From: an uncultured Verrucomicrobiae bacterium
GTDB taxonomy: Bacteria; Verrucomicrobiota; Verrucomicrobiia; Limisphaerales; JAFGQR01
Direction: 5' to 3'
DNA: 36,140 nt
Assembly (NCBI GenBank): GCA_963788655.1
Contig: CAWBHS010000098.1
Location: forward strand, 1-36,140
Part shown: positions 10,789 to 36,140 of the stretch, one piece after another
How the letters are laid out: each line of letters begins with the position of its first letter
How positions within the stretch are numbered: the stretch's first letter is position 1
Notes under the pieces: generated by a model
What the model was told of the DNA's origin: nothing
The model's input: only the letters and a program-made list of their open reading frames with translations
The model's database searches: none
Made by a program: the position numbers and the translations under genes

Positions 10789-11912
10789 CACACCACCTTC
10801 TCGGAAACTGGTTTTGCTCGCATCACCACGGAAAGCAACCACGCCACGCCGCCCAATCCAGCCACGAACGTAATCAGGAACAGCCCCACCACCGACCAAT
10901 TGGTCACCACCGTTCGCTGCCACACATCAAAGCCCTTGCTCAACAGCGTCACGTCGCGGATGCCGTCGCGATAAGTCGTCATGCTCAACATCGCCGCCAC
11001 ACCCAATGCCAGGCACAGCCAACTGGCCTGCCCGGCCCGGGCTTTGCCGAATCCCGTCCAGGTCCCGACCAGAAGAACCAAGACCATTACAATCAGCCAG
11101 GCGTAACCGGCAACCTGGTAAAATGGGTAGTCGGCCAATCCAGTGCGAACGGCTTCCGGTTGCTCGCGTAATACCCAGAATGCCACCGCCACCTGCACGA
11201 TCCCCATCACGACCGCCAGGCGGCCGCCGATTGTCGCCAGATGTGAGCGAACGGAGTCTTCCAAAGACTTGCGGCCCGAAAGCCAAACCAGCCACAACCC
11301 GGCGATCGTAAATCCGCCGGCCAGCATAAACAGCCAACGCGGTGTCAACGTGGCATCGACGGGCGGCAAATGAATCCCCATGGCCGTATTGGAATACATA
11401 GTTCCCCACACTTCGGGCCGTAGCATCAACGTCATGTTCGTCGAATAAATCCGCGCAATGACGCCCGCAATCAGCCACGCTCCCAACCCCAACCACCAGC
11501 CCGCCCGTCCGGCTTCACTGGCGGCGGCAAAGCGATACAGCAACCAATAGCACGCCATCAGCAGAAAGATGACCGCGATCCAATAAACGCCAATCAACAC
11601 GCTGCTGGTGTAGAGCGCCGGACCGTAAAGCACCTGGGCGAACAGCAACGGTGGCACCCCCAAGTTGATCACGTAGGTCATGACCACCGGCATCCGCCGC
11701 GCCAGGCTCGAAGACGTGTTCAAACGCAAGGCGCTGGCAGGATTATGCCCGCCGCGCGCCCCGAGGAAATTCAGCCACGTGGCCACGAGCAAGCCACCCA
11801 ACAGCATTTCCACCGACACAAAGTGCAGCGCCAGGGTGACGATGTGCAGCGCCTTGAACAGCCAGACTGGCGCCGGGATGGGAATTGGATCGACGGCGGG
11901 AAATATGTTCAT
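10788..11912 (-). CDS. Polytopic membrane protein, probable CydA'-like partner subunit
   Basis: About 9-10 TM segments. LHIVTLALHF and YVINLGVPPLLFAQVLYG motifs. First gene of a translationally coupled operon that ends with the CydA-like gene. Confidence 0.65.
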   Translation of the reverse strand: MNIFPAVDPIPIPAPVWLFKALHIVTLALHFVSVEMLLGGLLVATWLNFLGARGGHNPASALRLNTSSSLARRMPVVMTYVINLGVPPLLFAQVLYGPALYTSSVLIGVYWIAVIFLLMACYWLLYRFAAASEAGRAGWWLGLGAWLIAGVIARIYSTNMTLMLRPEVWGTMYSNTAMGIHLPPVDATLTPRWLFMLAGGFTIAGLWLVWLSGRKSLEDSVRSHLATIGGRLAVVMGIVQVAVAFWVLREQPEAVRTGLADYPFYQVAGYAWLIVMVLVLLVGTWTGFGKARAGQASWLCLALGVAAMLSMTTYRDGIRDVTLLSKGFDVWQRTVVTNWSVVGLFLITFVAGLGGVAWLLSVVMRAKPVSEKVV

Positions 11913-12327
11913 GGAATAAGCGTCTCGCGCTGGGCGAACTGTTCGCGACCCAACGTGGTTACAAATACGGTGCGGATGTTATCGATTGCGGCCATAGAAT
12001 TAACGGCGCGCATTCAAACATCTTCCTCCCCGCCTGACAACCATCGGAGCGTAAATTTTTTTTGCGCTGAAATTGCCTCCCTCCTTCGTCGAACCACCCG
12101 AGGGATTGGGACAATCCGAAGCATGACCAAGTATCAAATAAACAGCACAATGCTAATTAGCGATCAATGTCCAGTGAATGGCGACAGCCAAAGTCGCGTT
12201 ATGCGTAAAGTAGTCCAATTGCCATTGGTGTTAATTTGCCTGCTTGTTGGTAAACAGTTCGTTCTTAAAGCTGGGGAGAGGGCGTTGACGCGAGCCCGCG
12301 CTGCCCCACAAGAAACACCGAACAGCA

Positions 12328-12355
12328 GAACGGGCGCCGCACGCGACGCCCGTTC
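12328..12355 (-). terminator. GC-rich hairpin, possible terminator after the isomerase gene
   Basis: GAACGGGCGCCGC-AC-GCGACGCCCGTTC stem about 65 nt after the 12422 stop. The U-tail is weak. Confidence 0.4.
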
Positions 12356-12421
12356 CCACCCTTCGAACTCTCTACACTTTTAGCCCTTCAACACACTTCA
12401 CGCTTCAACTCTGCAACACGT

Positions 12422-13453
12422 TTACGCCCCCATCCCGTCTTCAAACGAGCCGGTGGCGACCGGGAAGCAAAGCGCGTCGCGCACGTATTCGATGCCGTTG
12501 GTGCTGGTGGCGTCCAGGTCGCGATAGGCGCTCTCGGCTTCGACAATCAGCGGAGCGGTTTGGGTGCCCATGATTTTGCAGTAGCGCTGCGGGTAGCCAA
12601 TGTGGATGAGCATTTCCACGTAGCGAATCATGTTGAGATCGCCACTGGGAATGTCCACGAACTGCATGGCGCGATTGGGCCAGTCCGCCGCCATCTTGCG
12701 CAATGGCACATCCGGGCGGATCACGAAGTTTTTCACGTGACAGGCATACACGCGGTCGGCGCATTTGCGGAACCGCGTTTCCCAATACTCATTTTCCCAG
12801 CAATGCGACGGATCGGCATTGACGCCGAGGCATTTGTCGCCGTCGCAGAATTTCACGAGTTGCAGGAAATCGTCGGCGCACATGGCCGCGGTGCCGGGAT
12901 GAATTTCGTGGCAGAGATACTGGCCGTTCTTATTGGCGTGTTCGCGAATCTTCGCCGTCTTTTTGGCGAAACGCTCGCCGCCTTCTTGAACGAAATCGTA
13001 GCCCGGCCCTTTCCAAAAGCCCCACGGATAACCGGTCGCCATTTCCCAACCGAAGGCGATACCCCAGAACATGGGCACAATCTTGAGGCCCAGTTCAGCA
13101 CACAGGTCGAGCAAACGCAGCAGGTAATCCTCAGCCCATTTTTCGATTTCTTCGGGTGACTTCTTGGCCACGTCCGGCGGGGTGAACGGGCGGATGGTCG
13201 GGCTGCCGGTCCAGGCGGTCGTGTGTACCCAGAACGGGCAATGCGCCGAAACGCCGTCCAGCTTCATGCCGGCCTTTTCAAAGGTGTCCTTGATTTCCTT
13301 GGCGGACTTGAAGCCCGGGCCGCTTTCCAACATGAAGTTGGACGGCTGCGCGCCGGTGGCGCCGGACTTTTTCGCGTAGGTCAGAAAGTCAGCCAGACTT
13401 TTCGCGCCGTGTTGGGCGCCTTCGATACTCGGATGAAAAACAGGTTGTCCCAT
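12422..13453 (-). CDS. Sugar phosphate isomerase/epimerase (xylose-isomerase-like TIM barrel)
   Basis: HEIHPG, NADPSH, CHVKN and IVEAE metal-binding motifs. Intact 343-aa ORF. Confidence 0.85.
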   Translation of the reverse strand: MGQPVFHPSIEGAQHGAKSLADFLTYAKKSGATGAQPSNFMLESGPGFKSAKEIKDTFEKAGMKLDGVSAHCPFWVHTTAWTGSPTIRPFTPPDVAKKSPEEIEKWAEDYLLRLLDLCAELGLKIVPMFWGIAFGWEMATGYPWGFWKGPGYDFVQEGGERFAKKTAKIREHANKNGQYLCHEIHPGTAAMCADDFLQLVKFCDGDKCLGVNADPSHCWENEYWETRFRKCADRVYACHVKNFVIRPDVPLRKMAADWPNRAMQFVDIPSGDLNMIRYVEMLIHIGYPQRYCKIMGTQTAPLIVEAESAYRDLDATSTNGIEYVRDALCFPVATGSFEDGMGA

Positions 13454-13582
13454 AAGTTTCTAGTTCTTCGCTCTGGTTATTGTTGTTTCGGGAGGGTTTA
13501 GCGGGGTTCCCGCCGGATTGCAACTGAAATTCGAACAGGCCCATTAATTCCCGGATGGCTTGGCATTATGGTAAGAATCACC

Positions 13583-14965
13583 TCAGTTTAATCCTGGCGC
13601 TGCTTGACGTTCGGCGCAGATGCCGACCACCGCATACACCGCAAATGCGCCGGCCAGCGATGGCAAATAAACGACCTCCCATTCCATCACGTACGTGCCC
13701 GCCACATAGATCGCCAATCCGGCAAACAGCGCCGCCATCGCGCTCCGCGGCCCACCGAACCGGGTGAACAGTCCCATTACGATGATCGCAAAAATGCCGG
13801 CGCTGCCCAATGCCGAGGCACTTTCCACCAAACCAAAAATGGTGTCCGCCTGAAGCGCCAGCACCCAGGCCACCACCCCGAACGTCGCCACGCCCAGGCG
13901 GGACATTCGGACCTTGCCGGCTTCGTTGATGCCGGGAAACAGGGGGAGGATCAGGTTGTGCGCCGTCAGCGAGGCCGCCGCCAGCAAGGTGCTGTCCACC
14001 GTCGAGAGGATGGCCGAGACCAATGCTCCGGCAAACAGAATGTAGAGCAGCGGTGGCAAATGCTGTTGCGCCAGCGTGGGCAGCAATTGCTCCGGATGAT
14101 CGAGATGCGGCAACATCGTTACGCCCACCAGCCCCATGAACACCGGAATCAGGCCGACGGCAATGTAGAGCCCGCCGCCCATCATCGCCGAACGGCGCGC
14201 CACGGTGGGCGAGCGGGTGGACAACACGCGAGCCACCAGTTCCTGCGCGACGACCGATCCGCAAATCGGGATCGCCCAGGCCTCCAACGTTTCCCACGGC
14301 GAGTGGTCGCCCCCGAACAGGTGGAGCCGGGCGGGATCAATGCCGTTCCAAGCCGTCTGCAACTGGCTCCAACCGGGAAACATCACCACCAGCAACAGCC
14401 CCAGTCCCAGAATGATCACCACACCTTGGATCAAGTCCGTGATAACGTCCGCCCGCATGCCGCCCGCGCCGGTATAAATAATGGCAACCGCGGCGGCGAT
14501 GGTGATGCCGGTGTTCGTGCCAATGCCGGACGAAGCATCCAGCACTTCGCCGAAACCGCGGATTTGCGCCCCCGCCCACATCACCGAAGTGGGCACCATC
14601 ATCAACACCGCCACGCGTTCCACCCCGACGGAATACCGTTGGCGGAGCAAATCAGCCAACGTCGTCAACCGCCGGCGCCATAAGGGAACGGCAAACACCA
14701 GCCCCATGAACATGATGCAAGCACCGTAGCCGAACGGCTCAGCCGAAGCGCCGGACAACCCTTCCTGGTAAATCCGCGCCGCGGAACTGATGCAGGTTTC
14801 GGCGCCGAACCAGGTCGCAAAGAAACTGAAGGTGGCCAGACCATACCCAAACCGGCGTCCGGCCAGCAGGTAATCATCCTCGCTGGCGATACGCCGGGAC
14901 ACAAGCACGCCCACCAGCAGTTGGAGGGCGACATAACCCATTACACCGATCAATACCGTGTTCAT
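13583..14965 (-). CDS. Sodium:solute symporter family transporter
   Basis: EDDYLLAGRR, FATWFGAE, YTGAGGMRADVITDLIQG, SAILSTVDS. About 13 TM segments. Start taken at MNTVLIG. Confidence 0.92.
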   Translation of the reverse strand: MNTVLIGVMGYVALQLLVGVLVSRRIASEDDYLLAGRRFGYGLATFSFFATWFGAETCISSAARIYQEGLSGASAEPFGYGACIMFMGLVFAVPLWRRRLTTLADLLRQRYSVGVERVAVLMMVPTSVMWAGAQIRGFGEVLDASSGIGTNTGITIAAAVAIIYTGAGGMRADVITDLIQGVVIILGLGLLLVVMFPGWSQLQTAWNGIDPARLHLFGGDHSPWETLEAWAIPICGSVVAQELVARVLSTRSPTVARRSAMMGGGLYIAVGLIPVFMGLVGVTMLPHLDHPEQLLPTLAQQHLPPLLYILFAGALVSAILSTVDSTLLAAASLTAHNLILPLFPGINEAGKVRMSRLGVATFGVVAWVLALQADTIFGLVESASALGSAGIFAIIVMGLFTRFGGPRSAMAALFAGLAIYVAGTYVMEWEVVYLPSLAGAFAVYAVVGICAERQAAPGLN

Positions 14966-17732: not shown

Positions 17733-18460
17733 GCAGCGTGCTGCCGGTATCTTGCCGGCAGATCGAACGCAGGAATGGCTAACGATTTGCCGCAGTGGTT
17801 CGAACGCACCGGGGGTATTCATTTCTGCCGGCGGAACGCCAGCAGCACGTTGGGCAGCGTGCTGCCGGCATCTTGCCGGCAGATCGAACGCATGAATGGC
17901 TAACGATTTGCCGCAGTGATTCGTACGCACCGGGGGGTATTCGTTCTGCCGGCGGGACGCCGGCAGCACGTTGGGCAGCGTGCTGCCGGCATCTTGCCGG
18001 CAGATCGAACGCAGGAATGGCTGACGCATTGCCGCAGTGATTCGTACGCACCGGGGGGTATTCATTTCTGCCGGCGGAACGCCAGCAGCACGTTGGGCAG
18101 CGTGCTGCCGGCATCTTGCCGGCAGATCGAACGCAGGAATGGCTGACGCATTGCCGCAGTGGTTCGGGCGCGCCTGGGGGTATTCGTTCCTGCCGGCGGA
18201 ACGCCAGCAGCACGTTGGGCAGCGTGCTGCCGGCATCTTGCCGGCAGATCGAACGCAGGAATGGCTGACGCATTGCCGCAGTGATTCGTACGCACCGGGG
18301 GGTATTCATTTCTGCCGGCGGAACGCCAGCAGCACGTTGGGCAGCGTGCTGCCGGCATCTTGCCGGCAGATCGAACGCAGGAATGGCTGACGCATTGCCG
18401 CAGTGGTTCGGGCGCACCGGGGGGTATTCGTTCCTGCCGGCGGGACGCCGGCAGCACGCT
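17733..18460. repeat. Tandem array of six 121-122 bp REP-doublet units (family F)
   Basis: Units start at 17733, 17854, 17975, 18097, 18219 and 18341. Each is bounded by inverted arms AGCGTGCTGCCGGCATCTTGCCGGCAGA and TCTGCCGGCGG(A/G)ACGCC(A/G)GCAGCACG. A single arm also occurs at about 28884-28911. Confidence 0.93.
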
Positions 18461-23181: not shown

Positions 23182-23322
23182 GTAGGACAGGCGTCTCGCC
23201 TGTCTCGAATTGCCGAGGGCATCCTCCCCTTGGGGTGACATTGACAGAATCCCGGCACCGCGATGCAAGTCGATGGGTTGCTGTCGTTCGAGACAGGCGG
23301 GACGCCGCGGGACGCCTGTCCT
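23182..23322. repeat. GTAG REP doublet (family B)
   Basis: GTAGGACAGGCGTCTCGCCTGTCTCGAA paired with TTCGAGACAGGCGGGACGCC(GCGGGACGCC)TGTCCT, which has an internal duplication. Confidence 0.8.
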
Positions 23323-23359
23323 TCTGAATCGTTCCGGCGAGCACCATTGCCAACCGCGG

Positions 23360-24434
23360 TCAGGCAATCTTCATCGCCTGGGCCTGGGCTTTGAGGGCCA
23401 GTTCGGCTGCGAGGAATGTGTGTTGTTGCGTCATGGCCGTTTCGGTGCGGTGCATACAATCCAGCACGAGCTGTCCGAAATAGGGGAAGCCCACCTTACC
23501 ATTCACCGTGAAATGTTGCTCCCCTTTGTGATCGACAAGATAAACATGATCGGCCGTCGTGTCGCGCGCCACATCGAGGTATTTGCGCAATTCAATGTAG
23601 CCGTCGGTGCCGAGGACAATCGTGCGTCCATCACCCCACGCGCCCAGGCCCTGGGGCGTGAACCAATCGACGCGGAAATAGAAGGTAGCGCCGTTATCCG
23701 CAACGAGCGTAGCGTCGCCGAAGTCCTGGAAGTCCGGATGGTCCGGGCAATTGTAATTGGCCACCTTGCTGTGGACGACCGTTGCGTTCTTCGCGCCGGC
23801 ATAATGCAGAAATTGCTCGATCTGGTGGCTGCCGATATCGACGAGAATGCCGCCGTATTTTGCCGGGTCCCAAAACCACGCGGGACGCGAGGGCGCGTTG
23901 AGACGGTGCGGTCCAAGGCCGATCACCTGCACCACGCGGCCAATGGCACCGTCCCGAATCAGTTGATCGGCATACACGGCTGCTTCCACGTGCAGGCGTT
24001 CGGCGTAGTAGGCGGCAAAAATGCGTCCCGTCTCGGTGACCTTGCGGCGCGCGGCTTCGATCTGTTCCAGCGTCGTGAACGGCGGCTTGTCAGTGAAGTA
24101 ATCCTTGCCGTGGTCCATGGCGCGCAAACCAAGCGGCCCGCGTTCGCACGGCACCGGCGCGCTGGCAATCAGTTTGATGTTTGCATCGTCAGGATTTCCT
24201 CTTCGCTCCGGGCACTTTCACGCCGGGATAGGTTTGGCAAAATTGCTCGACTTTCTTGGGATCGGGATCGAAGACCCAAGTCAGTTTGCCGCCCGCTTCG
24301 ATCAGGCCGTTACACTGGCCATAGATGTGTCCATGGTCCAGGCCAATGGCAGCGAAGGGAAACTCGCCGGGTTGACAGACCGGTTTTGCTTTGCCCTTGG
24401 GGGCGTAATTCATGCCGTCCGATTTTTGGTGCAT
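23360..24434 (-). CDS. Gfo/Idh/MocA oxidoreductase, frameshifted near 24150-24215
   Basis: N-part MHQKSDGMNYAPKG..AAIGLDHGHIYG. C-part DYFTDKP, GLGPHR, GGILVDIGSHQ, GTDGYIELRKY. Confidence 0.85.
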
Positions 24435-28915: not shown

Positions 28916-29058
28916 AAATGACCAAGAACCAATGACCAAGTTCCAGAGAATGCCCAAATCCCAAACCGCAAACCGCGTCCGAGCCGCCTTGCGCTGGCGG
29001 ACTGGGCTTTGGAGGTTGGTCCTTCTCTGGTGGTTGGGGTATTGGACATTGGTCATTT
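28916..29058. repeat. Heptamer-like degenerate repeats arranged as an inverted pair
   Basis: AAATGACCAAGAACCAATGACCAA... paired with ...TTGGGGTATTGGACATTGGTCATTT. Confidence 0.6.
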
Positions 29059-29530: not shown

Positions 29531-30923
29531 CTATTGGCTGCATGAGGATTCGATCAGGTTGATCAACCGCGGCAGCAAGGTTTCCTTGGTAAAGCTACGG
29601 GTGATTTGAGCTGGCCGGTCAGCATTTCGGTCAATGGCCAAGAGCTGCATACGCCGGATGGCCTTCACCACCGCTTCCACGTCGCCGTGATCCGCTCGGG
29701 CCCAGGTTGCGGAACTGTCTGCTGCTCCGAGAATCTCCGGCACATGGCTGGCCCGCGGGCCGATATACAACACCGGCACCGCGACGCTGAGGATGTTGTA
29801 AATTTTGCAGGGATGGATGATGCCCACGAACGGATTACCCATCACCACCAAGTGCAGATCAGCGGCCGAAAGTGAACCCGCCAATTGGTCGAGCGGCTGG
29901 TAGGGGAGGCAGAGGATGTTGGGCGATGGTATGGATGCCGGATTCTGGATGCCTGTTGCCGGATGGATTGAAGGAATGGTTGAGGGAGGGGAAGCCGAGG
30001 GATCAGTTCTCAGTGAACAGTCATCAGGCTGAGGGGAAGATAAGGATTGAGGATTGAGGATATTGGGTGAAGCAGATACCTCGCTCTTGGCACGTGGTGG
30101 CTGGGGATTGGCGCGCTGCTGTTCCACGATCTTGCGCCATTCGCTGCCGCCACCGACGAAACAAAACACGATGTTCGGATCGTCCGCCAGTTGTTGGGCG
30201 GCGGCCAAGACCGTCTTGAGGGGATGACACGGGCTGTGGTTGCCTGAATACATCACCACAAATTTCTCCTGCAATCCGTGGGCAGCGCGAAACCGGTTCC
30301 GCCCAGCAACGTCAAATTGGACTTCCCCGTCGTGTGACCATGGCGGGATGACAGCGATCTTGTCGGCGCCGATGCCTTTTTGAGTGATGCGGTCGCGCAT
30401 GAAATGGTCGAGGGCGATGATCTGGGCGGCCCGTTTGAAGCTGAACCGGGAAAGGTGTTCGAGCCATTTCGCCAGCCACGATTTCGGCCGCAACCAGCCG
30501 GCGGCGATCGCCTCATCCGGATTCATGTCCATCACCCAATAGCAGAACCCGCCGCCGCGCAAGCGGGTGAACCAGGCGCCTAGGAAGGAAATCAGAGGCG
30601 GCGACGTCAACGCCACGACGACATCCTGACGGGGCAAACGAGCCAAGCGCACACAGCAATTCAAGAGGAAGCTGGCGAAATCGGCGGCGCGCCGCCACTT
30701 GGCGGTTTTGCCAAAACGGGTCGAACCGACCCGACAGATTTGGATGCCGCGCCAGGTTTCGCGCGCGGGAAAGAGCCGGTCGGGATCATCGGTACGCCCG
30801 GCGGCTCGTGACGACGGTAACCTGATGTCCACGTTCCACTAAGCGCACCGCCAGTTCCGTCAGATACTGCGCGGTGGCCATCACGTCCGGGTGGAACGTT
30901 TGGTTGAGGAGGAGGATGTTCAG
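29531..30923 (-). CDS. GT4 glycosyltransferase (WcaI-like) with a frameshift near 30791 and an internal low-complexity insertion
   Basis: The N-terminus (L)NILLLNQTFHPDVMATAQYLTELA..GHQVTVV lies in the adjacent frame. LTSPPL, WVMDMNPD, VMYSGN, LPYQP..SLSAADLHLV..HPCKIY. Confidence 0.88.
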
Positions 30924-31090
30924 AGGTCAGAAGGCAGAAGGCAGAAGGCAGGGGGCAGTAAACAGTGATCGGTGATCGGTAACCGGTGGACAGAGGTCGG
31001 ATGCCGGATGCCAGAGGGCAGAAGATGGAGGACGGAAGACAGCGGTCAGGAAGCGGGCATCGAGAGTCAGTGGTCCGGTGGTCTGATGGC
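30921..31090. repeat. Mosaic of degenerate 7-mer tandem repeats
   Basis: CAGAGGT CAGAAGG CAGAAGG CAGAAGG CAGGGGG, GTGATCG GTGATCG, GGATGCC GGATGCC and similar. Confidence 0.75.
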
Positions 31091-31144
31091 AGATTGCGTT
31101 CTGCTCCTTCCTTTTCGCGTCGTTCGCGTGCTTCGCGGTTGCCA

Positions 31145-32004
31145 TCAACCTTGGCTGGATTGTGCGGTCAGCCGACGCTCTCGCCACGTGCGCAAGCCGG
31201 CAATCATGAGACAGCTTAAAGCGGAGTACAGACCCCAGGTGGCGGGTTCGGGAACTGGAGTAAAGTCAACGTAAAATCATCAATGCCAACAAGTGTCACG
31301 GCTGCCAGGACCCGGTGGACTGATCAAGAGCAACAATGAGAAATTGGATGCCAGACGCTATGATCGGTTCCACGCGTAGGTCCGCAGAATTAAAGGAGAC
31401 ATCCGTTGAACTCCATGTTCACTGGATCAGTAAAAGTGCCAAGGCATTAATCCATACAAGTTCCCGTTTCATCATTCGGCAGATCAATAGATTCAACACG
31501 TAATTGTTACGATGAAGATTGTCGAACCGTCGCAAAATTGTGCCGACCAAACTGAGACTGAAACTTATCGAAGCCCTATGTTTTGAATCGGATCACGCAC
31601 GACCCAGGCAGCGCCAGGATCTCCAAAGCGAACCAGTCTGGCGAATTGCCCAAGGCACTTAGTCGCTCTGAAGCATGCTGCAAAGTGCCGTTGAGGTTGT
31701 TTCCGTCAAGCCGATCTGCTGAAGCCACGTTTCGAAATTCGCCAGCTCCGAACTCCCCATGTTGCGGAGTCGAACAGGAAACATCGAGTTCCCGTCCCGT
31801 CGAAGAGGCGGTCGACGTCATCACTGAACAGATGCACCGCTTCCGGAAGCCGCTCCCAATAGCCGTCGAAGATCTTGGTGCTGTACAGCTCACGGTCATA
31901 GAAATCAGCTGCCTCGCAATCAAATACAACAAGTCCATAGAAAAACACGCCAAGAACAACACCACACCCTTCCGCCCTGCCACTCTCACTTTTTCCTCGT
32001 TCAT
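31145..32004 (-). pseudogene. PEP-CTERM surface protein, fragmented by many indels
   Basis: The minus strand reads VPEPATWGLYSALSCLMIAGLRTWRERRLTAQSSQG* from 31255 to 31145. Upstream fragments in shifting frames read GIDDFTL, IVALDQSTG, GTFTDP, IRQTGS/GDPGAA and GEFRNVASAD. Signal-like N-terminus MNEEK..GVVLFLACF at 32004. Confidence 0.75.
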
Positions 32005-32237
32005 AGCGAGGTGGATTATTGGGGAACGAGGCAATCAATGTAAAGCGAAATTTTATCAAAATTTTGGTATGGATGATTGTCATTCTTTGCGCTAACCGTT
32101 AAGTGACATTCTCGATCCGTTCCCCTTCGTGTAAATTCGTGCAATTTGTGTCTCAGACCGAAAGAGACACGAATTTTGCGGATTGGCACGAAGGGGAATA
32201 GCCGAAAGCAAAAGACGCCCCCCTGGTTGTCGCTGTC

Positions 32238-32858
32238 TCAAGTCACCGTTTGCACAGCGGCGATGAGTGATTGTTTGACGGCGGCGGGGAGCGTCCTCAA
32301 TCCCGGTTCCTCGAAGTAACACAACGCTTGCAACGGCAGCATGACGTTGAACTGCGGGCCATAAACCTGTCGGGCATAGTCCAAACCCTGGTGCAACGAA
32401 ATTCCGGTTTGGAGAATGGCGTGGATATCCAAATAATCCTTGGCTTCAGCCCGCTGATAGACGGTGTTCAGCTTGGTGGCCAACAAATCAGCCAGCCCAG
32501 CCACCCGACACACTTCGTCATCAGTCCAGTCTGGCTCCGCGATCCGTTGAAAGGTCAGGCCTCCAAAAAAGGAGACCTTGACCAAATCAGCCCCGTCGCG
32601 CAGCAACACCGTTAAGGTGTTCGGTTCCAATTGCAGCACTTCGCCGGAGCCCAGCAGTTCATGGTTGCGCCGGAAAGCTGCCGGGTCCAGAGGCGCAAAC
32701 GAGAAAAAGTCAAAATCGACCGACGCCCGATGTCCCAAGCGCATGGCCAAGGCCGTGCCGCCATAAAGAATAAAGTCCGCCGCGGAAAAACGCAGTTTGG
32801 GCCAGAGCGTGCGTTGACCCGCTGGCAGAATATCAAGTCGCGGTTGAAATTGGCTCAT
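32238..32858 (-). CDS. AbiEii/AbiGii-type nucleotidyltransferase toxin
   Basis: LYGGTALAMRLGHRASVDFDFF, LATKL..RAEAKDYLDI. ATGA overlap with the upstream gene. Confidence 0.88.
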   Translation of the reverse strand: MSQFQPRLDILPAGQRTLWPKLRFSAADFILYGGTALAMRLGHRASVDFDFFSFAPLDPAAFRRNHELLGSGEVLQLEPNTLTVLLRDGADLVKVSFFGGLTFQRIAEPDWTDDEVCRVAGLADLLATKLNTVYQRAEAKDYLDIHAILQTGISLHQGLDYARQVYGPQFNVMLPLQALCYFEEPGLRTLPAAVKQSLIAAVQTVT

Positions 32859-33169
32859 GCGGGGAATCGATGCGGCAAGGGTGGGACTGGGAAGCGCCCC
32901 AGCCGAACATGCCAATAGTTCCAACGCCGCGCGCTAAACACCCCCGGCGGCGGCGCGTTGATAACCTCTTCGAAGATGGCTTCACCCAGTTTGCTTTTCA
33001 CGGTCATGATGTCCTCCCACGTGCCCAGACTCATGACCTGAGCGGCAAACCGATGCCGGTTAGTCAGGGCCTCTTCAGGCTTTTCCCACCAGAACAACCG
33101 CTGGGCGACGGGCAGCAAATCGGGGTCGCTCCGCAAATCAGATTTAGTGGTTGTTGCGGTTTGGTTCAT
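32855..33169 (-). CDS. Small partner protein (DUF6922-like), putative antitoxin
   Basis: RLFWW..AQVMSLGTWEDI..FSARRWNYW. Translationally coupled to the nucleotidyltransferase gene. Confidence 0.75.
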   Translation of the reverse strand: MNQTATTTKSDLRSDPDLLPVAQRLFWWEKPEEALTNRHRFAAQVMSLGTWEDIMTVKSKLGEAIFEEVINAPPPGVFSARRWNYWHVRLGRFPVPPLPHRFPA

Positions 33170-33509
33170 GCGTGATCGGCAATGAAAAGGGTAAAGACAG
33201 CCAGCTTAACGCACAAGGTTCAATTACCCAAAGCGAGACACTAATTTCACGGATTTTCACGAATTAATTGGCCCCAAGGAACGTAAAGGAATCAAAGCAA
33301 AACGCTAAAAAGCCGAAACGCTGAGCTGGAAATAAAGACTACAGGACCAAGGGTCCACGGACCAAGGAACGACAAGTCCAAGGAGCATGCGACCGCGCAA
33401 AGGGCTGTCGCGCAAAGGGCTAGACATGGGGGGGCGGGAGGCGCAATTCAGTAATGAGAAACGCCCTCGGCCATCCACAGTTGGCGTAACCATCGGTCCA
33501 GCGGAACCC

Positions 33510-33926
33510 TCAAGGTTGGGAGCGTGATGGATGAAAGGCGTAATACTCGACCGTACAGAAGCGGGCGTCGCGAATTGCAGGATCGGGCGTGATCAGCACC
33601 AAGTCCAACACGTGGGCCGTTGCGGCGATGGTTCGGTCAAAGGGATCACCGGGAAAACCGGCGGGCAACTCATTCGTCGCCACGGCCACGGTTGCGGTGA
33701 GATCCAGTAGTTCGATGTCGCGCGCCATTACCCGGTCAAAAAACTCGGTCAGGCTTCCCGCGAGTTGCAACCGACCCCGACGGTGGTGCATGGCCAATTC
33801 AAGCAGAGTGACGCCGCAGACACCCTTCACCTCATCGGTGTCCAGCAACCGGCGAACCCGCGCGGGAAACACCTGGGGCATCAGCGCACTGTTGGCCAGC
33901 GTGGCCGTGTCGAGCAGGTAACGCAT
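33510..33926 (-). CDS. vapC: PIN-domain VapC-type toxin
   Basis: MRYLLDT, LLELA, GDPFDRTIAATA, LITPD. TAATG overlap with the antitoxin gene. Confidence 0.88.
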   Translation of the reverse strand: MRYLLDTATLANSALMPQVFPARVRRLLDTDEVKGVCGVTLLELAMHHRRGRLQLAGSLTEFFDRVMARDIELLDLTATVAVATNELPAGFPGDPFDRTIAATAHVLDLVLITPDPAIRDARFCTVEYYAFHPSRSQP

Positions 33927-34141
33927 TAGTAATTGCCTTTCCATTCTGCACGCGGTACGGGATCGGGACCGAGGGGGGGGCCGGCCGCCAGGCTCCTGGC
34001 CGCACCGAAGCAACGCGTGGGCTTTTCGCATTGAAAGGTGAACTGCTTGCCTTGACGGTCCACCAACCGCACCGTTTTCCCGGCGGCGGCCAACCGTTTG
34101 AAGTGCGCCAAGCGCCTGGAAAATTCACGCATCGTAATCAT
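33926..34141 (-). CDS. Phd/YefM-like antitoxin
   Basis: ITMREFSRRLAHFKRLAAAGKTVRLV pattern directly upstream of the PIN toxin. Start at 34141 or 34162. Confidence 0.7.
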   Translation of the reverse strand: MITMREFSRRLAHFKRLAAAGKTVRLVDRQGKQFTFQCEKPTRCFGAARSLAAGPPLGPDPVPRAEWKGNY

Positions 34142-34146
34142 GTCAG

Positions 34147-34175
34147 ACTTTAAGGCTGCCATCCGGCCTCGTCAA
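34147..34175 (-). promoter_or_regulatory. Putative sigma70 promoter of the Phd-VapC pair
   Basis: TTGACG (34175-34170), 17 bp spacer, TAAAGT (34152-34147), then 5 nt to the ATG at 34141. Confidence 0.55.
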
Positions 34176-34178
34176 ACA

Positions 34179-34232
34179 TGCTGAAACGCTGAAACGCTGA
34201 AACGCTGAAAGGCTGAAAGGCTGAAAGTGAAA
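34179..34232. repeat. (NGCTGAAA)6 octamer array
   Basis: TGCTGAAA, CGCTGAAA x3, GGCTGAAA x2, GTGAAA. Confidence 0.9.
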
Positions 34233-34255
34233 TAGCCATTTAGTTCCGCGCTGGT

Positions 34256-34672
34256 TTATTGGGCGAACGGATTTAAGACTTGCGCACCAGTATTTTTAAA
34301 ACCGTCTTCGTCGCGACTGACCACCACGAGATTGTGGGCCATGGCCGTCGCGGCCAAGAGAGCATCGATTACGGGCACGGGTTGACCCAATCCCAAGCGG
34401 CCCCAACGGTCAGCCACCCGCTCGTCCACCGGCAGCAATCGGTCCGCAAAGTCGTCCGAAATCGAACGAAGCCACTTTTCCAAAGCGAGCGCCTGCGATG
34501 GGTCACGCAGCCGAATCCGCTCGATACCCTTTCGGATTTCGCCGAGCACGAGTACGCTCACGAACAGTTCTTCCGCGGCAACGTGGTCAAACCACTTCCG
34601 CACTCCCTCGTCGCAGCGGTTTTCCTTCCGAAGCTCGCTTAAGATATTGGTGTCGAGCAGAAATCCGCTCAT
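34256..34672 (-). CDS. vapC: PIN-domain VapC/FitB-type toxin
   Basis: FLLDTNILSELRK, SVLVLGEIRKG, IDALLAATA..VVSRD..F..TG..VLNPF. Confidence 0.92.
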   Translation of the reverse strand: MSGFLLDTNILSELRKENRCDEGVRKWFDHVAAEELFVSVLVLGEIRKGIERIRLRDPSQALALEKWLRSISDDFADRLLPVDERVADRWGRLGLGQPVPVIDALLAATAMAHNLVVVSRDEDGFKNTGAQVLNPFAQ

Positions 34673-34905
34673 AATTTAACGGATCGTTCGATTTGGGAAC
34701 CGCGCTCGAAATCGCTGTCGTCGCCGACATTGGGGATGGCGAGCAGGGCGTCCTTGAACGACCGCTTCTTCGCCGCCTTGCCGAGCAAAGCTTCGCGCAG
34801 GATTCGGCGGTGTTCCTCCTCCATCGAGACTCCATGCTGGCCGGCTTGCTGCTTAAGTTGCTTCACGACCTTTGCTTCGATTTGCCTGACAATCAGTTGG
34901 GGCAT
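34669..34905 (-). CDS. FitA-like ribbon-helix-helix antitoxin
   Basis: MPQLIVRQIE..LKQQAGQHGVSMEEEHRRILREAL. Overlaps the start of the PIN gene. Confidence 0.88.
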   Translation of the reverse strand: MPQLIVRQIEAKVVKQLKQQAGQHGVSMEEEHRRILREALLGKAAKKRSFKDALLAIPNVGDDSDFERGSQIERSVKL

Positions 34906-34924
34906 AACACATCGATCTTTATTC

Positions 34925-34941
34925 TGCTATCAATGATAGCA
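34925..34941. promoter_or_regulatory. Perfect palindrome TGCTATCA-N-TGATAGCA, probable antitoxin operator
   Basis: Perfect 8-bp arms about 20 bp upstream of the RHH antitoxin ATG. Confidence 0.7.
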
Positions 34942-34967
34942 CGGGAAGCTGGCGAAGACGAGCAAAA

Positions 34968-35103
34968 TGCTGAAACGCTGAAATACTGAAACGCTGAAAT
35001 TATCTGGCGAGCAGGGCGCGAAGGATCAAGTGTTGCAACAGCGTGGGCTTGATCGGGCCAACCGCGAGCAAAATGCTGAAACACTGAACCTTGAAATCTG
35101 AAA
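34968..35103. repeat. Octamer arrays: (NNCTGAAA)4 at 34968-34999 and a degenerate copy at 35074-35103
   Basis: Both begin with the same 18-bp direct repeat CGAGCAAAATGCTGAAAC (34959 and 35065). Confidence 0.8.
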
Positions 35104-35431
35104 TCATCTGGCAAGCAAGGCTCGGAGGATTAAGCGCTGGAGCAAGGTGGGCTTTACCGGACCAACACGCAAGGCACACTCGACGGCTTGCTTGAGGCCG
35201 GAAGCAAAGCGCTCCGGCCCCCAATCGGCAATGATGCGGCGACTGGCTTCGCCCATTTGGGCGAGCGTGGTCGAGGGGGAAGGTTGAGGTCGGAACGGGA
35301 ATCCGGCGGGGCGCCGGATTCAACAGGCGCGGCGCTTGTGCTACCCCCCTTGTCCATGGTTGAAATCTTGAGCATAAGCTGGGCGAGTTGTTGGACGGCA
35401 AATGGATTGAAGTCGAATCATCCACGGAACC

Positions 35432-35797
35432 TCAGTCATCCTGCTGATACACGCGGATGCGTCCTTTCTCGACAATCCAGAGTTTGCCGCTGATCGGATT
35501 CTGCTGCAGGCCTTTGACCAAGGTCTGAAGGGTCGGTAGCAGATCTTCCGACGAAGTCCTTTTGGGCAACCGCAAGACGGCAATTCCGGGATAATCGCTG
35601 GGACAATACTCCAGCGGATTGGCAAAATCTAAATCCAACGTTACCAGGGTGCGACCCTCGCGGCGGCAGGCTTCAATGAGCGCGGCATCCGACGCCGATT
35701 GCATCTGTTGCGATGGCACGGTGGCAACGTCGTGGCCGGCCCCAACCAACAGTGCCCGTCCGCGTTCGCCGAGGTTCTCATCCAGCTTGAATTTCAC
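35432..35797 (-). CDS. DUF5615 PIN-like toxin
   Basis: MKFKLDENL, GHDVATV, SDAALI..REGRTLVTLDLDF, GIAVLR. Confidence 0.88.
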   Translation of the reverse strand: MKFKLDENLGERGRALLVGAGHDVATVPSQQMQSASDAALIEACRREGRTLVTLDLDFANPLEYCPSDYPGIAVLRLPKRTSSEDLLPTLQTLVKGLQQNPISGKLWIVEKGRIRVYQQDD

Positions 35798-36051
35798 GCG
35801 TGGGCTTCCAAGGGGATATTCACATAACGCTCACGCGACATTTCCGAACCGTAGGCAATGCAGGCCAGGATGTCCGCCTCCTCCAGTCCGGGATAATCGG
35901 CCAGAATCTCCGCTGTGGACGCCCCGGCAGCGAGCAAGTCAAGGATGAGCGATACCCAGATGCGATGCCCGCGAATGCAGGGTTTGCCGCCGCACCGCTC
36001 CGGATCGATCCAGATGCGCTTCAATAGTAGTTTGCGAACCTCAGGTTTCAT
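35794..36051 (-). CDS. DUF433 antitoxin
   Basis: RIWIDPERCGGKPCIRGHRIWV..ILADYPGLEEADILACIAY. 4-nt overlap with the DUF5615 gene. Confidence 0.92.
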   Translation of the reverse strand: MKPEVRKLLLKRIWIDPERCGGKPCIRGHRIWVSLILDLLAAGASTAEILADYPGLEEADILACIAYGSEMSRERYVNIPLEAHA

Positions 36052-36100
36052 GCTGTCGCCAACCTACCAGAACCACTCCAACTTGTCTTGGGGAATCAAA

Positions 36101-36132
36101 TGCTGAAACGCTGAAATGCTGAAATGCTGAAA
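36101..36132. repeat. (NGCTGAAA)4 octamer array
   Basis: TGCTGAAA CGCTGAAA TGCTGAAA TGCTGAAA. Confidence 0.88.
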
Positions 36133-36140
36133 GGAGATTG

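Follow-up and report, generated by a model that had tools for sequence, protein, structure and literature searches.

What are the short tandem repeats that separate four toxin-antitoxin (TA) gene pairs in the genome of an uncultured member of the Verrucomicrobiae, and did they play any part in bringing those pairs together? The pairs lie at one end of contig CAWBHS010000098.1, a stretch of 36,140 nucleotides that was analyzed whole (hereafter, the window) and that is contig C98 of an 8.96-Mb assembly in 115 contigs (genome G000). An earlier interpretation made from the letters alone, the sequence-only reading, had taken the repeats, which are arrays of an octamer, for recombination or insertion sites of a cassette-accretion system. 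This inference is supported in part: the arrays are far from random, but the stronger claim, of cassette-linked recombination sites, is not supported, homologous cassettes elsewhere lacking them and no recombinase having been found with them. The explanation that we favor, at a probability of roughly 0.55, is that the arrays belong to the class of intergenic heptamer and octamer repeats that includes GGGNATC, TAACTGA and the short tandemly repeated repetitive (STRR) sequences, and that this member has spread in Verrucomicrobiota and other bacteria of the Planctomycetes-Verrucomicrobia-Chlamydiae (PVC) group, was amplified locally, and has a role at gene boundaries.

Within the window, arrays of four, four and six units of GCTGAAAN occur at 36102-36133, 34969-35000 and 34180-34227, all on the + strand, as the sequence-only reading had described in unit number and orientation. 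Because the eight TA genes are all on the - strand, their sense strand carries the unit as TTTCAGCN. The first array is 50 bp upstream (in the - sense) of the start of the DUF433 gene, with the contig end 7 bp further on; the second is 63 bp upstream of the FitA start; and the third is 28 bp past a PIN-domain gene stop and 17 bp ahead of the next start. With at most one mismatch, a two-unit pattern matches 11 times in the 36 kb, each time within one of these three arrays, against 0.01 matches expected, and none of 100 shuffles reached 11. A looser search also detects a degenerate array at 35076-35103 (+), agreeing with the copy previously placed near 35074-35103. It belongs to a tandem duplication of 104 bp at 34959-35166 (+ strand, two copies at 78% identity), where it lies in the second copy; both copies have an octamer array first and then the 3' end of a fragment open reading frame (ORF). 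The further degenerate array claimed at 33303-33326 (+) is visible by eye as three weak units with one to two mismatches each, but is not called by TRF; GGACCAAGG-type repeats follow it at about 33340-33385. From array to start codon, the gaps of the downstream pairs are 50, 63, 17 and 133 bp.

When the octamer was mapped across G000, a check proposed along with the accretion idea, its distribution proved far from random. Strict arrays (29/29), TRF arrays of the family (28/28) and pattern matches (44/44) are all on the ends of four contigs, at 33.3-36.1 kb of C98, 2.2-18.4 kb of C60, 0.8-4.5 kb of C68 and near position 270 of C63. A looser search, for two CTGAAA within 24 nt, added 27 irregular two-copy matches (on 25 other contigs, with two far along C60) that look like chance. 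Nowhere else in the genome are 7-8-nt repeats as dense as on the four ends, whose 28.1 kb contain 55 arrays with a period of 7 or 8 nt. Their density is 19.5 per 10 kb, compared with 0.68 genome-wide (about 29-fold), while no other 20-kb window of G000 has more than eight. At least one such array is present in 15 of the 21 island intergenic gaps longer than 20 bp, and a companion heptamer family, CAGAGGW/CGGAGGA, has 16 of its 19 arrays in the same four regions. The regions have a GC content of 52-57%, compared with 59.6% for the genome (0.2 to 6.9 percentile of 4-kb windows), with the TA ORFs near the genome average. We infer that the four contig ends are pieces of one fragmented polysaccharide/TA island of about 28 kb.

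Polysaccharide genes on C60 (10-18 kb) encode a DUF354 protein as well as sugar transferases, both priming and WecG/TagA-type. In C60:0.4-9.5 kb there are fragments, namely the end of an FkbM methyltransferase gene and part of Wzy_C, and a series of small genes resembling TA genes: ParE and a partner, two small proteins of 'addiction-module' type, nucleotidyltransferase-like proteins and an MntA-like protein. C68 carries UPF0175 and DUF3368 genes together with an N-terminal fragment of a GT4 glycosyltransferase. The eight TA genes in the window all share one strand, and so do the TA-like genes at C60:4.2-9.5 kb. PADLOC returned weak AbiEii matches on the island, and matches to the candidate systems PDC-S09 and PDC-S70 for three proteins. 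On C60 the spacers are composite, running from an octamer array through a heptamer block and a short A-rich junction to another octamer array, and they are mutually homologous (154 bp at 94% identity in one pair). The DUF354 domain covers just residues 429-739 of a 787-aa ORF call (L001:15932-18295) that has an octamer array and a GGATGCG-type heptamer block in its N-terminal part; the call may represent two genes or an ORF read through repeats.

The repeat unit is a conserved 7-nt core, GCTGAAA, followed by one free base. In a logo of 88 units from 19 G000 arrays, obtained by period-8 autocorrelation, position 8 carries 0.12 bit, position 1 carries 1.06 and positions 2-7 carry 1.25-2.0; positions 1 and 8 were not used in detection, and just the contrast between these two is unbiased. 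Logos from other genomes have the same pattern, but are biased by the search for four perfect GCTGAAA units. Freedom at one specific position is not expected from neutral slippage and decay. It lends some support to a second suggestion of the sequence-only reading, that the arrays are RNA- or protein-binding signals, but not to the coupling of TA modules with the polysaccharide locus that this suggestion included. Arrays comprise two to seven units in G000 and up to 17 elsewhere. The core is not enriched outside the island, where it has an observed/expected ratio of 0.94, ranks 13,026th of 16,384 7-mers, and occurs 325 times on the G-rich and 290 times on the C-rich strand; this lack of over-representation or skew rules out a Chi-like or uptake-sequence signal. 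TGAAAC as a -35 element of the extracytoplasmic-function (ECF) type was dropped on inspection by eye, with position 8 free and no -10 at the right spacing.

The octamer family is found in several lineages, with a patchy distribution. Arrays are present in three of 40 genomes of the same order and absent from the genome of the same genus, and a DNA search of 400 genomes of the order returned about 29 with array-only matches. A scan of one genome per species gave at least 126 loci with four perfect units. Among the matches listed, most come from metagenome-assembled genomes (MAGs) of Verrucomicrobiota and other PVC bacteria in many orders, and a minority are labeled as other phyla, MAG taxon labels being possibly affected by binning errors. 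In an even sample of the phylum, three perfect units occur in nine of 300 other genomes, and the reversed pattern in none of 301. No description of tandem, heptamer or octanucleotide repeats in Verrucomicrobia was found in the literature, and the exact repeat strings were not found in the searchable literature.

Array-bearing loci in other genomes differ according to whether they carry one array or several. At single-array loci (101 neighboring ORFs at loci not already studied), the neighbors are mostly housekeeping genes (Ffh, urease, NifU, IspG, Dxs and CysH/CysN among them); about eight of the loci are of polysaccharide type, and no neighbor belongs to a TA family. In genome G016, likewise, arrays adjoin MnmG/DnaK and ATP synthase genes. 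Multi-array loci (78 ORFs at 15 loci) are polysaccharide clusters, encoding GT4/GT1 glycosyltransferases, carbamoyltransferase, epimerases, Wzm/Wzt, UDP-glucose dehydrogenase and EpsH. Interleaved among these are small selfish genes (PIN, VapB, HepT with MNT, DUF433 with DUF5615, PF05635, PDDEXK_3 and ORF6N), and the arrays are often 2-20 bp from ORF ends. In three lineages a PF05635 gene ('23S rRNA intervening sequence protein') stands between polysaccharide genes (L076:568-927, L056:2102-2464 and L040:2553-2909), each bracketed by octamer arrays within about 0-20 bp. The companion heptamers do not amount to a shared composite element: they differ between lineages, and only CGGAGGA recurs, at four loci.

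Outside G000, genes were called with a crude ORF picker based on GC at third codon positions (GC3), which makes the distances and the 33:17 count given here approximate. By crude gene calls, 70 of 92 arrays are outside genes. Across the 92, array strand has no bias relative to the direction of the neighboring gene (28 vs 27 on the left, 28 vs 25 on the right), which argues against a simple transcript-strand signal. In other genomes the nearest gene tends to be on the 5' side of the GCTGAAA strand (33 vs 17, p 0.03; 25 vs 12 with one array per locus). Where arrays on opposite strands face each other within 150 nt, GCTGAAA comes before TTTCAGC in all 10 cases, from eight genomes; within 300 nt the ratio is 13 to 1. 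For eight of the 10 pairs the predicted fold has -46 to -68 kcal/mol and a stem preceded by an A-run and followed by a T-run, the shape of a bidirectional, terminator-like hairpin; for the other two it has -16 and -18. One inverted pair, in genome G005, is translated in frame within a variable linker of an otherwise intact wzt gene.

Among the TA pairs, a recognized toxin family is present in all four (DUF5615/PIN-like, PIN, PIN and AbiEii), and a recognized antitoxin family in two of the four upstream partners. In pair 1, the putative antitoxin is a DUF433 protein of 85 aa (35794-36051, - strand; PF04255, E 1.7e-26) whose gene overlaps by 4 bp that of the putative toxin, a DUF5615/PIN-like protein of 121 aa (35432-35797, -; PF18480, E 3.8e-19). 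Pair 2 consists of a FitA-like ribbon-helix-helix antitoxin of 78 aa (34669-34905, -; PF22513, E 9.7e-15) and a VapC-type PIN-domain toxin of 138 aa (34256-34672, -; PF01850, E 4.7e-18). The toxin of pair 3 is a PIN-domain protein of 139 aa (33510-33929, -; PF01850, E 2.5e-10), and that of pair 4 an AbiEii-type nucleotidyltransferase of 207 aa (32238-32861, -; PF08843, E 2.1e-15, with a weak PADLOC AbiEii match). Their partners, ORFs of 78 aa (33926-34162, -) and 104 aa (32855-33169, -), are putative antitoxins by position only; they overlap the toxin genes by 4 and 7 bp and have no family match. The claim of four co-oriented pairs therefore stands for the four toxins, DUF433 and the FitA-like protein, but not for the labels 'Phd-like' (78 aa) and 'DUF6922-like' (104 aa), for which there is no such Pfam match at E up to 5. 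Nor is the supposed PEP-CTERM context confirmed: a crude C-terminal motif scan revealed no PEP-CTERM protein in the window, and the sole related signal is a weak TIGR04063 match (38 bits vs a cut-off of 442) in a glycosyltransferase at 29531-30832. This is the polysaccharide gene nearest to the TA stretch, and the window from 1 to 29 kb is occupied by unrelated housekeeping genes.

If the arrays were part of the cassettes, they would be expected to travel with them, and they do not. None of 11 homologous FitA-PIN or DUF433-DUF5615 loci fetched from other genomes has an octamer array within 1.5 kb, and these loci are single, set among unrelated housekeeping genes that are different each time. 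Conversely, genome G436 has three adjacent TA pairs without arrays. Two insertions with TA genes in G005, which separate duplicated 5' parts of wzt, have junctions free of octamer arrays. The arrays are thus a property of the locus and not of the cassettes. Moreover, the array locus of G000 holds just two of the 29 PIN genes and one of the 11 DUF433 genes of the genome, and a second PIN-rich stretch, on C49, is not repeat-dense. Arrays are neither necessary nor sufficient for TA clustering. In the G005 locus (contig C83) the 5' part of wzt is present three times (L018:5064-6488, 11860-12588 and 13172-13723); two truncated copies are each followed by TA-type genes, with the intact copy downstream, and have other low-complexity sequence in place of the array pair. 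This layout looks like the product of repeated Campbell-type or homology-driven insertions.

Comparison with relatives gives a view of the cassette ends. The FitA-PIN cassette (34233-34944) has homologues at 68-75% nucleotide identity in many genomes of the order, including the congener, and the proposed check of breakpoints found the homology ending 6 bp past one array and 25 bp short of the next; the picture for DUF433-DUF5615 is similar. Identity to the congener (G001) is just about 70-77%, and synteny with it stops near 28.7 kb of the window, so there is no 'empty site' to compare. The 20 small proteins of the island have no close paralogues within G000, so no internal cassette boundaries can be defined. 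Public reads of the stretch came from a single study of soil metagenomes, in which two runs contained 0.08 and 0.05 of the sampled words; no RNA run was listed, coverage was thin, and the contigs on the stretch were short pieces without joints. Arrays in these reads matched many unrelated contigs with different flanks, and metagenome scans for an exact 22-nt unique flank and for a 26-nt composite-spacer junction gave no matches in either case.

The machinery of known cassette systems was also sought. As the sequence-only reading had remarked, there is no integrase or attC site to be seen: C98 carries no tyrosine recombinase and no attC-like structure, and no integron or insertion sequence explains the cluster. 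None of the 20 PF00589 tyrosine recombinase matches in G000 is on C98, C60, C68 or C63, three array regions of which touch contig ends. An attC site would be expected as an imperfect palindrome, with cores RYYYAAC and GTTRRRY, closing each cassette. In a crude test for attC in the window, the spacers had no recurring inverted repeats or imperfect palindromes, and in another crude test R''/R' core pairs numbered one in 4.1 kb, compared with a shuffle mean of 0.7 and maximum of 6. An attC-like role of the arrays is excluded as far as these tests reach. Additionally, no arrays lie within 1.5-2.5 kb of Y1 (IS200-like, RAYT-type) transposases at the six best loci in five array-bearing genomes, or at 12 in G000, which argues against a REPIN/RAYT origin. 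The sequence-only reading had named random arrays, breakpoints lying elsewhere, and a standard integron or insertion sequence as grounds for giving accretion up; on those grounds the idea survives, because the arrays are non-random, homology ends near them, and no integron or insertion sequence accounts for the cluster.

In the explanation that we favor, the octamer family, sporadic across Verrucomicrobiota and other PVC bacteria, is one of gene boundaries. In G000 it has remained within what would be a single, variable island of polysaccharide biosynthesis, about 28 kb long and now on four contig ends, where octamers and companion heptamers (CAGAGGW/CGGAGGA and GGACCAAR types) fill most intergenic gaps. 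The four TA pairs would be ordinary selfish modules, acquired independently and piled up in the island, and the arrays would be spacers between them, outside the cassettes. The modules would carry promoters of their own: a sigma-70-like site, TTGACG-17-TAAAGT, a consensus match only, is seen for one pair at 34147-34175 (-), between the 6-unit array and the start of the 78-aa ORF, and the other pairs presumably have promoters too. The uniform strand of the arrays may have come from local spread of a composite spacer by duplication and unequal recombination. Most likely, in line with proposals for the GGGNATC and TAACTGA classes, the arrays would act as gene-boundary elements at the level of the transcript or of transcription, with facing arrays forming terminator-like hairpins.

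Several points weigh against this explanation. The ends of cassette homology, 6 and 25 bp from arrays, would also fit a role in recombination, as would the truncated gene fragments beside arrays. The G000 locus does not follow the nearest-gene rule of the other genomes (7 vs 12, by crude gene calls), and the arrays of the window, together with most of those in the G000 locus, are on one strand and form no hairpins here. The four contig ends are unjoined in the assembly, the single locus being our reconstruction, and termination, insulation or binding would be putative activities of the arrays.

The alternative that survives best, itself unlikely, would make the arrays landing pads. As recombinogenic or fragile repeats, or as patches of homology, they would be places where promoter-bearing selfish modules insert through host recombination or repair, without an integrase. 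Each insertion would split an array into two co-oriented halves, giving integron-like accretion by host recombination alone, and the captured modules in verrucomicrobial polysaccharide islands would include TA pairs, proteins of the 23S rRNA intervening-sequence type and PD-(D/E)XK genes. The closeness of arrays to the ends of FitA-PIN homology is consistent with this, as are the single strand of nearly all arrays in the locus, the 104-bp duplication bounded by arrays, and the coincidence of array clusters with small selfish genes between polysaccharide genes in at least 10 other lineages. Truncated genes also stand beside arrays (Wzy_C, FkbM and GT4 in G000, and an N-terminal fragment of a GDP-mannose dehydratase gene in L031), and a recombinase is neither needed nor found. 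Cassette ends, however, are gene ends anyway, so that closeness to arrays is expected for any intergenic repeat. Octamer arrays are missing from the junctions of the G005 insertions between wzt fragments, G436 has a TA cluster but no arrays with it, and no insertions are seen at single arrays between housekeeping genes. Arrays can also arise inside a gene, as in the wzt linker, which points to the repeat as an invader and not a target.

A less likely idea is that the arrays are contingency repeats, in which slippage of 8-nt units tunes or switches the neighboring surface-polysaccharide and TA genes, for which there are precedents (PMC8262952; PMC12721329). The unit length is not a multiple of three, the window arrays are 17-133 bp upstream of start codons, and the locus encodes surface polysaccharide functions; the array pair of G005 is in frame within the wzt linker, so a change of one unit would shift the wzt frame. 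Against this, units within an array differ at position 8, and recent slippage of identical units is therefore not dominant. Elsewhere, many arrays separate housekeeping genes that belong to a single operon, and in the window the arrays do not come between cassette promoter and gene but are upstream of both.

Less likely still, the arrays would be the binding sites of one particular protein that recognizes DNA or RNA and, as a regulator or silencer, controls the island as a unit. The conservation of a 7-nt core with one free position both in G000 and in other lineages would suit such sites, as would the sharing of the core by distant families with a sporadic distribution, and four units are a common number, seen in eight of the 14 G000 arrays that have three or more. 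This idea comes without a candidate protein, however, and the 8-bp period puts successive sites on different faces of the duplex. The absence of strand bias among the 92 arrays argues against a simple signal at the mRNA level, and the motif is not over-represented outside arrays. Largely refuted, and highly improbable, is a sedentary chromosomal integron or other recombinase-driven cassette array with the octamers acting as attC, which has in its favor the co-oriented, small, TA-rich cassettes separated by a recurring repeat, and against it the lack of PF00589 matches on the four array-bearing contigs, of recurring imperfect palindromes and an excess of core pairs, of arrays at any homologous cassette locus and of Y1 transposases near arrays, as well as a promoter-like site upstream of one cassette that suggests cassettes with promoters of their own.

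Other features of the window and genome deserve mention. Between the first two TA pairs, at 35098-35411, is a non-coding or pseudogene fragment with 80% identity to C68:465-800 in reverse orientation; it has just one 50-aa ORF, without a family, and no Pfam, Rfam or tRNA match. About ten genomes of the order contain copies, at 78-86% identity, of a piece of about 55 bp of this fragment that includes a 10-bp hairpin without mismatches (35299-35321); one of these genomes, G610, is unpublished and contributes a single short match. Directly past the AbiEii stop the TA stretch is closed by a palindrome with 35-nt arms (32120-32198) that are 80% complementary, with a predicted RNA fold of -49 kcal/mol; it is single-copy in G000, but another genome of the order has a 94% match to 35 nt of it. 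Rfam gave no matches at E up to 1 in 31000-36140, and ARAGORN no tRNA or tmRNA scar in 31-36 kb. Elsewhere in the window, at 17733-18458, a 122-bp unit is repeated six times in tandem with 93% matches, overlapping a 534-aa ORF call without a family. Other heptamer families of G000 are dispersed (AATGACC, 91 arrays on 46 contigs; AAATCCG, 44; ATCCGGC, about 40); examples of heptamers in the window are at 28917-28939 and 30928-31012, and GGATGCT-type repeats reach 55 units on C76.

Mobile and repeated elements also lie around the array regions. A 2-kb group II intron (C60:18447-20453; L003:5242-7248) is present in G000 five times or more at 99.5-99.9% identity (two copies on C60, one each on C68, C39 and C107); it encodes, on the - strand, a reverse transcriptase/maturase of 449 aa that has a YADD motif. 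The intron adjoins the array region on both C60 and C68, which may explain contig breaks or a mis-join. An 820-bp element (L001:9939-10758) has 99% copies on C55 and C27, and the genome also has two families of dispersed repeats, about 150 and 185 bp long (C60:20759-20907 and 23246-23433), each with dozens of copies. For assembly, the practical consequence is that all three array regions break contigs; for annotation, it is that spurious ORFs such as '...SAFQLFSF...' are read through arrays.

Should the favored explanation be true, it would add a well-defined octamer family, a 7-nt core with a free base, to a little-understood class of 7-8-nt intergenic repeats, and it would give that class testable properties: position-specific conservation, a fixed order of facing arrays that makes terminator-like hairpins, and in-frame entry into coding linkers. 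It would also mark the polysaccharide islands of these bacteria as sites where selfish small genes and such repeats accumulate together.

How, then, does this locus compare with known systems? In integron arrays, such as those of Vibrio with their VCR repeats, small cassettes follow one another in one orientation, TA pairs being frequent among them, and a recurring repeat (attC) stands between neighbors. The window shares with them the co-oriented, TA-rich small cassettes and the recurring repeat between them, but has no integron integrase (IntI) on the array contigs and no imperfect palindrome of attC type, and its repeats do not travel with the cassettes. The inverted doublets of other genomes, which have a fixed order and fold into long hairpins, one of them in frame in a gene, recall the repetitive extragenic palindromic (REP) sequences and REPINs, with their RAYT transposases, and the in-frame palindromic elements (RPEs) of Rickettsia; here, by contrast, the arms are tandem octamers, no Y1 transposase is near the arrays, and the window has direct arrays only. 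The STRR sequences of Cyanobacteria are lineage-specific tandem heptamer families in non-coding DNA, of unknown function, and the octamer arrays differ from them in unit and phylum.

Contingency loci, exemplified by the heptanucleotide repeats upstream of hmw1A in Haemophilus influenzae (PMC8262952; PMC12721329), likewise have 7-8-nt repeats upstream of or inside genes for surface structures, with a unit that is not a multiple of three, but the octamer arrays have non-identical units and in many cases elsewhere flank housekeeping genes. Among the closest phenomena described are the short-unit satellites in Bacteria (PMC6749651). Also among them are the direct TAACTGA repeats known from Beggiatoaceae, Cyanobacteria and Bacteroidetes (MacGregor, 2015; PMC4679880), described as intergenic, often a few nucleotides from a start codon, also beside essential genes, and patchy enough in phylogeny to suggest horizontal spread, with no evident mechanism. 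They are dispersed, with 169 sets in one genome, whereas the octamers are clustered in one island and differ in unit and in phyla; the abstract of that work reports no association with TA or polysaccharide genes.

The GGGNATC heptamers of Xanthomonas and Nostoc (Rehm et al., 2015; PMC4692102) are described as tandem 7-8-nt units in two to more than 20 copies, frequently four, that are over-represented between genes and found in unrelated lineages. They are G-rich, form G-quadruplexes and are spread genome-wide, whereas GCTGAAAN has no G-tracts, an 8-nt period with one free base and, in G000, confinement to one island. The purine-rich strand of GGGNATC is reported to be antisense upstream of ORFs and sense after stop codons (Rehm et al., 2015). 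In the window, too, the purine-rich strand is antisense upstream of starts; by crude gene calls, a tendency of this kind is seen in other genomes (33 vs 17) but not in the G000 locus (7 vs 12). What the two families have in common is the tandem 7-8-nt unit, the excess between genes and the occurrence in several lineages.

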